Source: a virus
Lineage: Duplodnaviria; Caudoviricetes
Direction: 5' to 3' (one strand)
DNA length: 29,553 nt
IMG/VR virus record: IMGVR_UViG_3300005805_000018
Location: 1-29,553 of that record
The translations under genes and the position numbers were made by a program. Below the pieces are notes generated by a model that saw only the letters and a list, made by a program, of their open reading frames with translations, searched no databases and was not told where the DNA came from. How positions within the stretch are numbered: position 1 is the stretch's first letter; every line of letters starts with the position of its first letter. Shown in pieces: positions 23,220 to 29,553 of the stretch.

Positions 23220-23446
23220 TCACCTAAATATTTTGTATCTTCATAACCTATAGCACGGCTAATTGAAATATCAACGGGATAGCCTTTGACCCCTTTGAGA
23301 TTTAAGATGATCTGTGTGGCACTACCTTGACGAACCCAATAGCCGTGCCGCATCGGTTCAAAACGACTATCAAGTTCATTTAGATCTCGTGGTCTGACAT
23401 TTTGACACCAAAGATCATATAGATTATAAAATAAATGATCTTTCAT
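23216..23446 (-). CDS. Hypothetical protein
   Basis: 76 aa; ATGA overlap. Confidence 0.6.
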   Translation of the reverse strand: MKDHLFYNLYDLWCQNVRPRDLNELDSRFEPMRHGYWVRQGSATQIILNLKGVKGYPVDISISRAIGYEDTKYLGD

Positions 23447-23781
23447 TGGAATCTCACAATATCCTCAAATAGTGGTGTGGTATCACGATCTGCTCTTCGA
23501 TAACGACTGATAACCAATTGTTGATATCGAGTCATAATACAGACATTAGGTAAGGTCCAAGCACCTTCCCAATCGATACGACTCAAAACATAGTCGTGGG
23601 GTTGTCGGCCTCGATTCAACCAATAGCGATCATCTTCCCAAATAGTACGCCATTGATCCCAAGTGATATCACATAATTCAGATCTATATTCACATTGGGC
23701 CTTGAAACGCAGCCAAGCCAATCGCTTGCGACCAACTTCGCCAGTCCAAACTTTATTTTTATTATGCTTCTTGGTTTTCAT
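23443..23781 (-). CDS. HNH-like endonuclease-fold protein
   Basis: W..RGR...DYVLSRIDWEGAWTLPNV pattern. Confidence 0.6.
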   Translation of the reverse strand: MKTKKHNKNKVWTGEVGRKRLAWLRFKAQCEYRSELCDITWDQWRTIWEDDRYWLNRGRQPHDYVLSRIDWEGAWTLPNVCIMTRYQQLVISRYRRADRDTTPLFEDIVRFQ

Positions 23782-25544: not shown

Positions 25545-25845
25545 TTTATGAAATTATTTTACATAAATTATAATATTTCTACAACAATCAAATACCCCAA
25601 TTGGAGATCCTACAAACATATATAAAATATAGATTTAATATTGGCTATTATTATAACCTTACTATCAATCTATGAGATCCTACAAACATATATAAAATAT
25701 AGATTTAATATTGGCTATTATTAAATTCATATAACCCCATATTCCCCGTTCGTATGTTTGTTCTTGTTCGAAGAGATCTTTCTAATAAGTTCGAAGCGAA
25801 GCGAAGAACGGATCAATATGAGCGATAAGCGAATGATTGATCCCT
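25545..25845. other. Candidate replication origin
   Basis: One of the two largest non-coding gaps; iteron-like repeats, AT-rich tract, hairpin cluster with GCGAAGC; abuts the polymerase-like gene. Confidence 0.55.
25604..25723. repeat. Two exact 50-bp direct repeats (25604-25653, 25674-25723) in AT-rich non-coding DNA
   Basis: gagatcctacaaacatatataaaatatagatttaatattggctattatta x2, 70-bp period. Confidence 0.92.
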
Positions 25846-26888
25846 CATTCTTGATCATATACTGACCAATCGAACTTTATTCGAAATCCCGTTTTCCCAA
25901 AAACGATATCACTCAATTCATTGGGATCAATAAACCTCGTAGATCTAAATCCATCGTGTTCGTGAAAATATTTGATCTTCTTCTTTTTCAAATGACCGAT
26001 AACTGATTTCATTACTAAACTCTCTAACATCTGATAGTAATTGGTTTTATCTACACCTCTTATTCTACGGGATTTCTCTTTGCCATCAATAATCTCAGTT
26101 CCAGTATCAATTTTTACTCGTAATATTGACCACATCACACGAATATCTCTCTGAAGTTCTTGAATATAGGGATTTCGTCTTATTTGATTCATCTTATAGG
26201 TATTTCCTCCCAATATGGCCAAAATGCGATTATGTTCATAATAGGGATTCATTCGTGCTCCTTGAAATAGGCCATTTAGAATTTGTTTAATCACTGCTTC
26301 CCCAATATTCAATTTGATACTCAATTCCGTTCGTATTTCTTTTTTGAATTCAATATAAGCCTCAATGGCTTCGAGATGTAAAGGTGTCAAATGGATTCGT
26401 TGTGCTTGTTGATATAATAGTGTTGGGGCACAACACTCAATATCATAATCATAGGGATAACCTCGTTGGCTCCATTGATCTGCTTTATGTCTTCTTGCTA
26501 TATATTGTAAGGTATGAAAACTACGCCATTCTGCTTGATTCATTTCAAAATCACCTGATGCTATTTGATCTTCACATTGATCAAATCGAGCCTCGATACG
26601 CAGGAAGCGTAATTGTGTAGGTGGTAGTCCTAATAAACTGCGTAGATAATTTAGGTGTTGCTCATTTACACGATATTGCTTACTGAACTCACCTGGTTGA
26701 AATCTATCATTGATTTGAACTAATAGATATTTCTGTAGCCATCGACCGCTGGGGCTACTACCAAATGCTTGTGGATCACTTAATTTTTTGCTATGGATGC
26801 GTTGATCTTCCGCACCGATGTTTTGTTCAACCCATTCGATGACACGAAGGGCTAATCTTCGATTTCTCGAATCTTCTAAATTGATCAA
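25845..26888 (-). CDS. Minimal family-A-like polymerase (TV-Pol-like primase/polymerase or initiator) with a putative N-terminal wHTH
   Basis: Motif A YDYDIECCAP, motif B-like IKQILNGLFQG, QMLES helix, motif C HEHDGF; TTG start with AGGAG; no exonuclease domains. Confidence 0.65.
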   Translation of the reverse strand: MINLEDSRNRRLALRVIEWVEQNIGAEDQRIHSKKLSDPQAFGSSPSGRWLQKYLLVQINDRFQPGEFSKQYRVNEQHLNYLRSLLGLPPTQLRFLRIEARFDQCEDQIASGDFEMNQAEWRSFHTLQYIARRHKADQWSQRGYPYDYDIECCAPTLLYQQAQRIHLTPLHLEAIEAYIEFKKEIRTELSIKLNIGEAVIKQILNGLFQGARMNPYYEHNRILAILGGNTYKMNQIRRNPYIQELQRDIRVMWSILRVKIDTGTEIIDGKEKSRRIRGVDKTNYYQMLESLVMKSVIGHLKKKKIKYFHEHDGFRSTRFIDPNELSDIVFGKTGFRIKFDWSVYDQE

Positions 26889-26962
26889 TATTATCTCCTA
26901 AAAATAATAATTGGCGTTTTGATCTCGCAACAGATCAAATCGCAGTCTCCTTATCACAATAT

Positions 26963-26989
26963 TATTTATATAATAATTTAGAAAGTCAA
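26963..26989 (-). promoter_or_regulatory. Composite promoter: TTGACT -35 plus TATAAATA
   Basis: TTGACT at 26984-26989; exact T4 late consensus TATAAATA at 26963-26970. Confidence 0.65.
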
Positions 26990-27001
26990 GAAATAAGGGG
27001 T

Positions 27002-27031
27002 AAAATGAAAACCCCCCAATTGCTGGGGGGT
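27002..27031 (-). terminator. Rho-independent terminator
   Basis: acccccca-gcaat-tggggggt followed by TTTCATTTT. Confidence 0.85.
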
Positions 27032-27171
27032 CCGTGCCTATAAAATCAAACTTTAGGTAAATGAAAGACGCGGTAGATGTTGCGATTTAGGAGACTTCAA
27101 ATGACAAAGCAATATTATTTTTAGGATTGCGAAAACACAATTCAACAAGCATCATATGAAATATCTACCGC
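27003..27171 (-). ncRNA. Candidate ~170-nt structured antisense sRNA
   Basis: TAAATA at 27177-27182, closing stem 27160-27171/27070-27081, terminator, no long ORF, and segments complementary to the downstream leader. Confidence 0.55.
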
Positions 27172-27206
27172 ACAAGTATTTAGTTGGAGTTCTAAATACT
27201 CTATTA

Positions 27207-27419
27207 TTATACAATATTTTTATGACAGGTCAAACACTTTTTCTGCCAAAGAGGATCAGGCACACAGCGAATATAACCGGGATGTGTGACTCGCTTTGAG
27301 CAATAAAGACAGGCAGTACGCTTGGGCTCATAATATTGTATCCCATCACGCAATTGACGATAACGGGGTTGTAATACTTGACTGAGTATGATTTCAAATC
27401 GGGCTGGCCTCATAGCCAA
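27207..27419 (-). CDS. Small Zn-finger protein
   Basis: CLYC...CLTC; 70 aa; start could instead be the ATG at 27413. Confidence 0.6.
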   Translation of the reverse strand: MAMRPARFEIILSQVLQPRYRQLRDGIQYYEPKRTACLYCSKRVTHPGYIRCVPDPLWQKKCLTCHKNIV

Positions 27420-27431
27420 TTACTTACCCAA

Positions 27432-27653
27432 CTATCGAAGCAAAATGGCTAAAATCCCTAAACAGGCCAAAGTAATACCAATACCAAGCCCCTGAAAATA
27501 TCGACAGAATTTTCGATTATTTTGTTCAAATAAGGCCAAAATATCCTGAATTTTTGCCTCTAAATTCAGGATTTTTGCCTCTAAACCTCGGTAATTTTTT
27601 TCACAAGTATCTATGTGCTGTTCGAGGTCTCGTTTAAGTTTTGACTCAAACAT
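27432..27653 (-). CDS. Coiled-coil plus C-terminal TM protein (holin/XhlA-like candidate)
   Basis: TAATG overlap with the fibre stop; LEQHIDTCEKNY; hydrophobic C-terminus. Confidence 0.55.
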   Translation of the reverse strand: MFESKLKRDLEQHIDTCEKNYRGLEAKILNLEAKIQDILALFEQNNRKFCRYFQGLGIGITLACLGILAILLR

Positions 27654-29553
27654 TATCCAAGAGCGACCCAAGCACTACCATTATAAAATGCTACATAGGC
27701 AGTGGTAGTTGAGAATGTTGCTGGGTCCCAAGTGACTCCATCTGCTACTGCGATCGAACCAGTGACATAACCGACTGGTTGAGCAGTTTGAACTGGTAGA
27801 TTGAATAATGGAGCACTGATCTTGACCGATGCTGTGGTAAATTCAGTGATCGTGGTGATGACTGAACTCTTTTCTTCATAGATCTTGACCGAACCGCCAT
27901 TCTCTGTCTTGTTGATTCGAATCTTGGCTGAGTCTGCACCTCTTTGACCAGCAAGTAGTAGATCTGGTGCACCAAATATGCGAGCATCTGTGCCACCACC
28001 ACCAAAGTCGATCTGTTCATTGCGAATGAATATCACACCATAACTGGTATCACCCAAGCCCATATTGCCATCGCCGTCATCTTTGATCAACACACGATTG
28101 CTTGAATCTTGCACACGGGTAATTGTGGCTGTGGTGACTTCAATGGGCACTGAAAAATCAACTTGATTAGTTGTAGTGTTCCAAACGATAACACTACTAT
28201 CACCGTCGCTCTTATTGCGAACGGCAAACTCATTGGAAGTAAATCTTGCAGTTTGAATATTTTCAAATGACAAGACTTGATCATCCATACTCATTCGAGT
28301 CTGTTGATTTGTAGTGCCTGCACTTACGGTATCAAATAATAATCTGGTTCCCAATGCTGTAGTTGAAGCATTTTCTAACATACGAACTTTGATAGCGGCT
28401 ACGGTGTTGCCATTACCAGTATTAGAATCTGTGGTAGGAGTCTGCCATTGAATATCATAAACTGCATCATCTTGTATAAGTTTATTTCTACGAGCACTCA
28501 TACCACTACGGCGAACACCAACAAGACTGATGTAGTTTGTATTAGATAAGTTGAGATTATCAGCACTGCCGTCATTGGCCACACCAATTATGGTATGTTG
28601 TGCATTAACCCAAGTCACTGCCATCTTACCGTGGCCAGTATAGGTTGTGCCACCTGCTGCCGGTGTTAAAGTTGGATTGGTTCCAGCATTATCATTGAAG
28701 AACAAGTTTAGGGTTGGAGGAGCACCTGTGACCAAAGTCTGGCTGGTTCTCATCCACCAACGGCGGCTGGTTGAATTTAGTTGAATATCCTGTGGTTGAT
28801 CACGGAAGAACCAATTTACACCTGCGTTAGTAGTAGTCGAACCTGAATTAGTCCAAGCACCTGCTGCGGTCAATAATATCATACCTGGAGCAAATCCGCG
28901 ATCTACTTTGGTGCTGGCTGTGCCATCATAACCTGAAAACTCATATGCTCCAAGAGCATTGCCATTATTCATTGCTAATGGTGTGCTGGGTGTTCCTCTA
29001 TAACCTTCAAGTGTAATACTGGCCTGTGGTGTAGATGAACTGGTTCCACCTGATTGGTTTTGACCATAATCTCTTATTAGACCGCGACCGATTAGACCTG
29101 AAGTATAATTTGAAGCGTGAATCAGATATGGAGTTGAACCACTTCCTGTCCAATAACCTGTGCTGGCCAATGAATCACCACCAAGGACCGCACTACGGGC
29201 GATCTTGGTGCCACTATTCACGGTTAAGACATTTGTCACCGTTAGACTATTCACCGTGGCATCTGAATCAGTAGTAAATCCGCCTTGGGCACCTTGGCTA
29301 CCTTGTGAGCCTTGGCTACCTTGGAAGCCCTGTGCCCCAGCATCGCCTTGATGACCTTGGAAGCCCTGTGCCCCTGCGTCGCCTTGATGACCTTGGAAGC
29401 CTTGTGCCCCTGCGTCGCCTTGATGACCTTGGAAGCCTTGTGCCCCTGCGTCGCCTTGATGACCTTGATTGCCTTGATTTCCCTGATTACCTTGGAAGCC
29501 TTGTGCCCCTGCGTCGCCTTGATGACCTTGATTGCCTTGATTTCCCTGATTAC
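27653..29553 (-). CDS. 3' part of the collagen-repeat tail fibre (starts at 913 across the junction)
   Basis: Frame is open from the window end through (GxQ)n to the TAA at 27653; RGTPSTP..LG.YEFSGYDG fibre motif. Confidence 0.85.
   Translation of the reverse strand, partial: NQGNQGNQGHQGDAGAQGFQGNQGNQGNQGHQGDAGAQGFQGHQGDAGAQGFQGHQGDAGAQGFQGHQGDAGAQGFQGSQGSQGSQGAQGGFTTDSDATVNSLTVTNVLTVNSGTKIARSAVLGGDSLASTGYWTGSGSTPYLIHASNYTSGLIGRGLIRDYGQNQSGGTSSSTPQASITLEGYRGTPSTPLAMNNGNALGAYEFSGYDGTASTKVDRGFAPGMILLTAAGAWTNSGSTTTNAGVNWFFRDQPQDIQLNSTSRRWWMRTSQTLVTGAPPTLNLFFNDNAGTNPTLTPAAGGTTYTGHGKMAVTWVNAQHTIIGVANDGSADNLNLSNTNYISLVGVRRSGMSARRNKLIQDDAVYDIQWQTPTTDSNTGNGNTVAAIKVRMLENASTTALGTRLLFDTVSAGTTNQQTRMSMDDQVLSFENIQTARFTSNEFAVRNKSDGDSSVIVWNTTTNQVDFSVPIEVTTATITRVQDSSNRVLIKDDGDGNMGLGDTSYGVIFIRNEQIDFGGGGTDARIFGAPDLLLAGQRGADSAKIRINKTENGGSVKIYEEKSSVITTITEFTTASVKISAPLFNLPVQTAQPVGYVTGSIAVADGVTWDPATFSTTTAYVAFYNGSAWVALG
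29283..29553 (-). repeat. Collagen-like tandem repeat with 9-, 36- and 63-bp periodicities
   Basis: Units encoding GAQGFQGHQGDA and GNQGNQGNQ. Confidence 0.92.

Follow-up and report, generated by a model that had tools for sequence, protein, structure and literature searches.

A predicted tandem antisense RNA upstream of a Pol A-fold gene in a small tailed phage, with counterparts in related phages

Known antisense systems and the phage locus

The c4 RNA of phages P1 and P7 is encoded in tandem with its target, on the same strand, and is cut from a longer precursor. It blocks translation of ant at the ribosome-binding site (RBS), presenting in loops the complements to the RBS region of its target, with a sequence specific to each phage (RF01695; as described in PMC12197685). 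The CI RNA of P4 lies in tandem upstream of the replication genes that it restrains, pairs through separate complementary segments and is processed from the leader, where it causes premature termination (according to PMC4825925). In the plasmid systems CopA/tap/repA (R1) and Inc/repZ (IncI) an antisense RNA, a leader ORF by the rep start and an origin 3' of rep are combined, and CopA acts by blocking tap, repA being coupled to the latter (in the account of PMC12361487); both CopA and Inc are encoded on the opposite strand of their targets and are fully complementary to them. SviR, of the Vibrio PLE, is a sequence-conserved small RNA of a mobile element that acts on the element's own transcripts and has proven helper-phage targets (as reported in bioRxiv 10.1101/2022.04.08.487710).

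The locus analyzed here belongs to IMGVR_UViG_3300005805_000018, a complete phage record with direct terminal repeats, whose whole length of 29,553 nt constitutes the window. All long ORFs are on the minus strand, and genes for terminase, portal, scaffold, capsid, tape-measure and collagen-like fibre proteins were recognized; in the complete genome no lysin, holin, helicase, SSB or integrase was recognized and no tRNA or tmRNA was found. The nearest named relatives of the capsid are those of four HTVC111P-type Pelagibacter phages (42-46%) and of the metagenome-assembled DSL-LC06 (37.5%; the latter as presented in PMC10611076). Both ends of the record (1-913 and 27653-29553) lie inside collagen-like repeats of fibre genes, and the terminal repeat and the repeat count may therefore be assembly-dependent.

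A sequence-only reading of this genome had proposed a self-contained small-RNA unit on the minus strand, ahead of a polymerase gene. The features of the unit and of its surroundings, as placed in the present analysis, are as follows.

27206..27233, minus strand: candidate sigma70-type promoter for the RNA, TTGACC-16-TATAAT (11/12 matches, best of 11 sites)
27175..27200, both strands: 9-bp inverted repeat with back-to-back TAAATA boxes (minus strand 27182-27177, plus strand 27193-27198)
27177..27182, minus strand: T4-late-like TAAATA promoter-like box P1
27004..27171, minus strand: predicted small RNA of ~168 nt with presumed ends; folding z -3.7 against shuffles
27070..27171, minus strand: closing stem, 9-bp arms 27171-27163 and 27078-27070; folding z of the core -2.9
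27113..27126, minus strand: 14-nt element antisense to the arm of the polymerase RBS hairpin and the first 4 nt of the Shine-Dalgarno (SD) sequence
27078..27097, minus strand: predicted open seed, with the anti-SD word and complements of the leader-peptide start region and of the leader hairpin loop
27004..27033, minus strand: intrinsic terminator with a GCAAT five-base loop (27019-27023); hairpin 27033-27009, U tail interrupted
26961..26989, minus strand: promoter P2, TTGACT-17-AATAAT, overlapping a TAAATA (26968-26963)
26889..26957, minus strand: target leader with two AGGAGA sites (26951-26946 and 26899-26894) and two predicted hairpins; folding z only -1.8
26891..26938, minus strand: putative upstream ORF read in the sequence, 15 codons, with a TTG start (26938) after the first AGGAGA
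25845..26888, minus strand: gene for a 347-aa minimal Pol A-fold protein, TV-Pol-like, a putative primase or initiator
25604..25723: two identical 50-nt AT-rich direct repeats, period 70, 3' of the polymerase gene; candidate origin

The proposed succession of a minus-strand TAAATA (27182-27177), 5 nt, and then G27171 as the first base of a stem closing at 27078-27070 was recovered, as was the terminator noted at 27011-27031, though its U tail is interrupted. The enclosed loop, put earlier at ~78 nt, measures 84 nt between the 9-bp arms and is partly folded: only a 15-nt 3' segment of this antisense domain is predicted to be open (0.83-0.99 unpaired). The presence of its own promoter-like box and terminator suggests that the RNA is a primary transcript. 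In addition to its TAAATA, each of the two transcripts, small RNA and leader, is preceded by a sigma70-type candidate site; the genome scan found such sites at chance level (11, with a shuffle mean of 10.4). A start at the sigma70-type site would come ~28 nt earlier and give an RNA of ~196 nt, with the inverted repeat at 27175-27200 as its 5' hairpin. Transcription from the plus-strand TAAATA (27193-27198) could yield an antisense RNA to the upstream ORF 27207-27419. That the small RNA itself encodes a peptide was rejected, as its 22-codon ORF lacks an SD and such units contain almost no sense SD words.

The unit shares with c4 a phage-specific sequence and complements to the target RBS region displayed in a loop, an exposure that is here predicted; unlike c4, it has its own promoter-like box and terminator, and its presumed target is a Pol A-fold gene rather than an antirepressor (ant) operon. 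With P4 CI it shares the tandem position upstream of a presumed replication gene and pairing by separate segments, whereas it would target SD sites, and the leader (26957-26889) contains no recognizable intrinsic terminator. The order of parts, with a putative leader ORF and a candidate origin, is that of CopA/tap/repA and Inc/repZ; however, the RNA would come from a separate upstream gene, in tandem with its target on one strand and 110-280 nt from it, and bears patchy complements that would need co-evolution. The locus would represent plasmid-style antisense logic in a tailed phage, exerted by a gene of its own placed in tandem with the target. Like SviR it would be a small RNA of a mobile element with predicted action on its own transcripts, but this phage has head and tail genes of its own and the RNA sequence is not conserved. 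It is fairly likely that the small RNA acts in the manner of P1 c4 and plasmid CopA while being a member of neither group.

Rfam yielded no family at gathering score in the genome or in 29 related loci; ten weak matches (best E 0.65) were taken as chance. The absence of sequence likeness to c4, asserted earlier, was upheld by the RF01695 covariance model, which gave 0 matches at E<=10 over the whole genome. Two pattern scans for the RNA itself each returned at least 120 loci and gave no unit among those listed: among the matches listed in the first, 15 had stems of at least 7 bp and by eye none was unit-like, and among the loci listed in the second, 0 had a TAAATA ahead of the stem. No description of such an RNA class was found in the literature searched, and three motifs had 0 matches in the 3/6 supplementary files of the Fremin csRNA catalogue (PMC10690425) that were searched, so that an entry elsewhere in that catalogue is possible. 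Judged from its sequence, this is apparently an undescribed variety of phage antisense control.

Complementarity of RNA and leader in this phage and its relatives

The complementarity in this phage is confirmed as real and beyond chance. The loop was scored against the 94-nt leader, with dinucleotide shuffles as the control and coverage counted as nucleotides in matches of at least 7. The perfect 14-nt complement reported in the sequence-only reading (27126-27113 to 26909-26896) is present, together with its second match to the polymerase SD (27094-27086 to 26902-26894), the further leader complements (27096-27089 to 26951-26944 and 27088-27081 to 26944-26937) and the complement of the leader hairpin loop (27085-27078 to 26932-26925). 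These matches are better than those of AT-rich shuffles, the comparison which that reading had proposed: the 14-nt length was reached by 0/2000 loop shuffles, the 38-nt coverage of the leader by 1/2000, and the RNA-leader duplex energy by 0/500; none of 1236 other 94-nt stretches of the genome reached the 38-nt coverage. The match to the RBS of gene 25532 that had also been claimed exists (27097-27089 to 25545-25537, 9 nt), but it is not distinguishable from chance, and this gene is unsupported as a specific target; over the genome, the minus strand carries 22 loop matches of at least 9 nt and the plus strand 14.

Relatives were assembled from 88 loci, 80 of them with the polymerase family, of which 57 distinct polymerase loci were left after removal of 3 without a start and 20 duplicates. 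A unit was defined by a pair of TAAATA boxes preceding the gene and separated by 100-350 nt, a rule that is blind to complementarity, was chosen after a few units had been seen by eye, and leaves out the by-eye units L007 and L185. Such a pair is present at 27/57 loci and absent from 30/57; some of the pairs are probably not units at all. A terminator is found in 19/27 units (coding controls 0/27), a strong closing stem (score at least 12) in 16/27 (at the second box, 3/27) and a hairpin with the GCAAT five-base loop in 11/27 (control 0). Anti-SD words are enriched (CTCCT, 12 against 3.2 expected; TCTCC, 17 against 3.3), whereas sense SD words, with counts of 1 and 0, are not. SD-led upstream ORFs of at least 10 codons occur in 3/27 units; the upstream ORF is therefore not conserved. 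The GCAAT-loop hairpin, which is possibly a protein-binding site, serves as the terminator or stands just before it in this phage (27019-27023) and in L001, L002, L003, L006, L024, L151, L155, L165, L170 and L176.

Relatives with polymerases that are 23-40% identical keep the layout of the unit, but not the sequence of the RNA: the units cannot be aligned across relatives, which precludes a covariance model. The search for close relatives sharing this RNA sequence found none, and column-wise compensatory changes are therefore lacking. Complementarity was compared by scoring each of the 27 units against its own downstream 100 nt and against the other 26 leaders. Own leaders score above cross leaders on all three measures (P 1e-5 for each), with 8.33 vs 7.07 for the longest match, 16.5 vs 8.9 for coverage and 34.7 vs 29.9 for duplex energy. 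Without the unit of this phage the coverage is 15.7 vs 8.8 (P 4e-5; reached by 0/1000 leader shuffles), and a score for helices that tolerates G-U pairs also separates own from cross leaders (P 1e-5). Recurrence of own-leader complementarity in related phages, another check proposed earlier, thus holds over the 27 rule-defined units taken together. Taken singly, 9/27 units pass at P<0.05 and 5/27 have no 7-nt match at all, and antisense and same-strand matches differ only at p=0.033. Coverage by matches is highest in the stretch from 30 to 10 nt 5' of the start codon, with examples in L006 (11 nt just 5' of the start), L151 (13 nt), L165 (10 nt across the start) and L171 (9 + 11 nt). In 14 whole records, which were picked by eye and are secondary evidence, the adjacent leader scores 21.9 vs 9.8 for 82 other TAAATA leaders; it is the best in 7/14, another TAAATA leader being better in the other 7.

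By these sequence comparisons the relatives are shown to keep the architecture, with RNA and leader staying complementary while both sequences diverge. Such joint drift suggests phage-specific control, by analogy with P1/P7 heteroimmunity. It also points to a class of phage regulatory RNA that sequence- and alignment-based screens would miss, because it is the architecture and the complementarity to the neighbour that are conserved, and not the sequence.

The next gene is not always the polymerase: in L165, L184, L148, L149 and others it is a small early ORF ahead of it. DSL-LC06 (OR003941; L208:239-372) has no polymerase homologue and yet, by eye, shows a TAAATA box, a stem, a terminator and a near-perfect complement of the RBS of the next gene. 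A second layout is seen in L162, L206, L019, L161, L179, L017 and L021, where one TAAATA is followed by a stably folded leader of 110-170 nt; in L162 and L206 a loop word is, by eye, complementary to a segment near the SD, a possible pseudoknot. The variety of next genes, the DSL-LC06 unit and the single-box loci together argue that the predicted RNA would regulate the next early transcript and is not a cofactor of the polymerase.

Matches of the RNAs fall in 86/582 start regions of their own genomes (14.8%), in 1293/9493 foreign start regions (13.6%) and in 188/2525 coding interiors (7.4%). The similarity of own and foreign starts leaves multi-gene targeting within the own genome unsupported; the bias toward start regions beyond the adjacent leader arises because the units carry the anti-SD word.

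Proposed action of the RNA and competing explanations

In the folded leader the second predicted hairpin buries the SD and start of the polymerase. The last two codons of the upstream ORF are the polymerase SD, and its stop ends 2 nt before the polymerase TTG. Co-folding of RNA and leader gives energies of -8.8 to -11.6 kcal/mol, the ensemble value of -8.8 being reached by 2/150 shuffled loops. The predicted binding covers the SD of the upstream ORF, whose unpaired fraction falls from 0.42 to 0.01, and 4/6 bases of the polymerase SD, for which it falls from 0.38 to 0.27; that of the polymerase start codon rises from 0.08 to 0.78, and that of the whole footprint is unchanged (0.39 to 0.36). Because co-folding frees the start codon and leaves the footprint unchanged, it does not settle the sign of regulation; the reading preferred here is repression of a coupled and hairpin-gated start.

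The explanation adopted here, with moderate confidence, is that a tandem-encoded antisense RNA blocks both SD sites of the leader-peptide/polymerase message and so damps the predicted replication protein. A transcript running from its own promoter-like box to its own terminator would arise ahead of the polymerase gene, in tandem with it, and would bind both ribosome-binding sites of the leader in trans. Ribosomes on the upstream ORF would open the polymerase hairpin (translational coupling), and the small RNA would block such coupling, leaving less of the predicted replication protein. If its level follows genome copy number, the RNA would serve as a replication brake, and perhaps also in phage-specific exclusion of close kin. 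The sequence-only reading had likewise seen in the unit an undescribed switch for replication or copy number, and such control may be its role; the parts of that reading that stood are the superiority to shuffles and, through the relatives, the complementarity to the own leader. The gene-25532 target is unsupported, and the class of units is not tied to the polymerase. For the large family of minimal Pol A-fold proteins the antisense model offers a control circuit that is open to testing.

That the pairing occurs in cis instead, with the upstream domain of read-through transcripts folding onto the leader to form an attenuator or a switch acting over a distance, is unlikely. Such an arrangement would accord with the interrupted terminator tail, with the single TAAATA and long, stably folded leader of L162, L206, L185, L019 and L161, and with P4 CI, which also pairs within its own transcript (as PMC4825925 describes it); the terminator kept between the boxes in 19/27 units and the leader's own promoter candidates argue against it.

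A broad anti-RBS weapon, directed mainly at the mRNAs of the host or at a co-infecting T4-like phage that would supply the gp55 to fire TAAATA, with the own-leader match as a side circuit, is decidedly unlikely. It draws on the matching of start regions at about twice the rate of coding interiors and of foreign starts almost as often as own ones, on TAAATA marking gene starts in 17/17 records, on the failure of 43 + 126 searched ORFs to match gp55, sigma, helicase, lysin or integrase, and on the precedent of SviR, which acts on PLE and ICP1 RNAs (as stated in bioRxiv 10.1101/2022.04.08.487710). However, the generic bias follows from the anti-SD word, complete SD-plus-ATG mimics are at background (4/34), a 19-nt complement of the loop has 0 matches in IMG/VR, and undetected phage or host factors could read TAAATA. 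At the same background the loop was also rejected as the mimic of a complete translation start (plus strand: SD, ATG and 7 codons).

Activation, in which the small RNA would open the hairpin that hides the polymerase start, is quite improbable. The model does have the 14-nt element pairing with the 5' arm of this hairpin and releasing the start codon, but AGGA of the SD is occluded by that helix as well and the upstream SD by the seed, and in L006, L151, L165 and L171 the matches fall on the SD or else overlap or adjoin the start codon.

That no RNA function exists, the matches having arisen by chance from AT-rich sequence or been left over from an inverted duplication, is very improbable: the region is indeed AT-rich and 18/27 units fail singly, but the shuffle, own-versus-cross leader, terminator and stem statistics all run the other way, the matched pieces in this phage are not colinear with a single inverted copy, and the layout persists in relatives with 23-40% identical polymerases.

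Hardly credible, finally, is a role of the RNA as template, primer or cofactor of the Pol A-fold protein, a polymerase partner as had been suggested earlier: the RNA adjoins a minimal polymerase whose family has a predicted priming function (per PMC2579912), but 30/57 polymerase loci lack the promoter pair, the RNA sequence is not conserved, other genes may follow the unit, a similar unit (by eye) stands in DSL-LC06 without a homologue, and the 50-nt repeats contain no loop complement of at least 9 nt.

The Pol A-fold protein and the TAAATA boxes

The gene behind the leader had been called a polymerase, and its 347-aa product is indeed predicted to have a Pol A fold. Its structure model (pLDDT 92.6) finds T7 DNA polymerase in Foldseek (E 4.5e-6), aligns with a family A polymerase in VIA (Z 12.4, rmsd 3.8, 223 aligned) and also matches virophage primase-polymerases. 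The ORF has no match in Pfam or PHROG, and neither a PDB sequence search, tblastn of named phages nor a single-protein scan of viral contigs gave a match; its relatives form 540 clusters at 50% identity, a phage family without a name. The GTDB scan returned one family member (L236:5971-7044), on a 51-kb Steroidobacteraceae MAG contig of 53% GC; its upstream region is without TAAATA boxes and without an RNA unit, and it was not taken as a host call. Neither of the 2 loci from a metagenome scan has upstream DNA enough for a unit.

With TV-Pol (Iyer et al. 2008, in the description of PMC2579912) the protein shares a minimal Pol A core without nuclease, the hairpin Arg and two Asp; R122, D149 and D312 are invariant in 36/36 family members, and the beta-hairpin is present in the model. 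The RxxxK of the TV-Pol fingers is absent, E197 standing four residues before K201 with no conserved Arg in the column. TV-Pol has a D5 helicase or resolvase/integrase neighbourhood, of which nothing is seen among the 43 ORFs here except a weak 'helicase' PHROG match on a methylase. Unlike TV-Pol, the protein has an N-terminal domain of ~95 aa, with weak winged-helix matches in 7/36 members. By its fold, it is a putative replication protein. Exact direct repeats of at least 20 nt lie just 3' of the polymerase gene in 9/51 loci, inside it in 1/51 and upstream in 0/51; repeats behind the polymerase fit a rep-ori layout, a fit and not a proof, and make those at 25604..25723 a candidate origin.

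TAAATA precedes genes in this phage 5 times (0.6 expected) and is enriched there in 17/17 records of the group (3-10 observed vs 0.1-0.7 expected), though not in HTVC111P and HTVC112P. Minus-strand boxes at 27182, 26968, 24597, 21773, 21084, 15287, 12223 and 3831 lead early and virion operons, as do those of 16 other records, DSL-LC06 included. The consensus of T4 late promoters is TATAAATA. The conserved part of the box here is the 6-mer only, TA preceding TAAATA in 14/54 sites; sigma70-type sites stand ahead of 5 and 6 of 27 boxes (control 1).

T4 late promoters, read with gp55, gp33 and gp45, require gp55 and gp33 and place their box one turn upstream of gene leaders, virion operons among them (so PMC2988020). 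The boxes here are placed likewise but, unlike those of T4, also lead early genes, and gp55 was not detected: PHROG gave no match to gp55, gp33, gp45 or sigma among the 43 ORFs of this phage or among 126 ORFs of four complete relatives, many small ORFs having no assignment, and in the relatives none to helicase, lysin or integrase either (for the relatives, best 5 matches per protein, over ORFs of up to 1.5 kb apart from the polymerase and some short ones called on the opposite strand). Helper dependence is therefore possible, and it becomes a sharper question which factor recognizes TAAATA promoters when a small phage has no detected gp55. A wider picture, a long shot, is that these ~30-kb phages are helper-triggered parasites of T4-like phages, low-copy replicons held by the tandem antisense RNA on a primase-like initiator until helper gp55 fires TAAATA, the anti-SD RNA perhaps throttling helper messages; fast co-divergence of RNA and leader would then define immunity groups. 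A 112-aa ORF (23443-23781), considered as a reader of TAAATA, gave no named match in the Atlas and was set aside; it occurs in 14/17 TAAATA records including DSL-LC06 and is absent from HTVC111P and HTVC112P.
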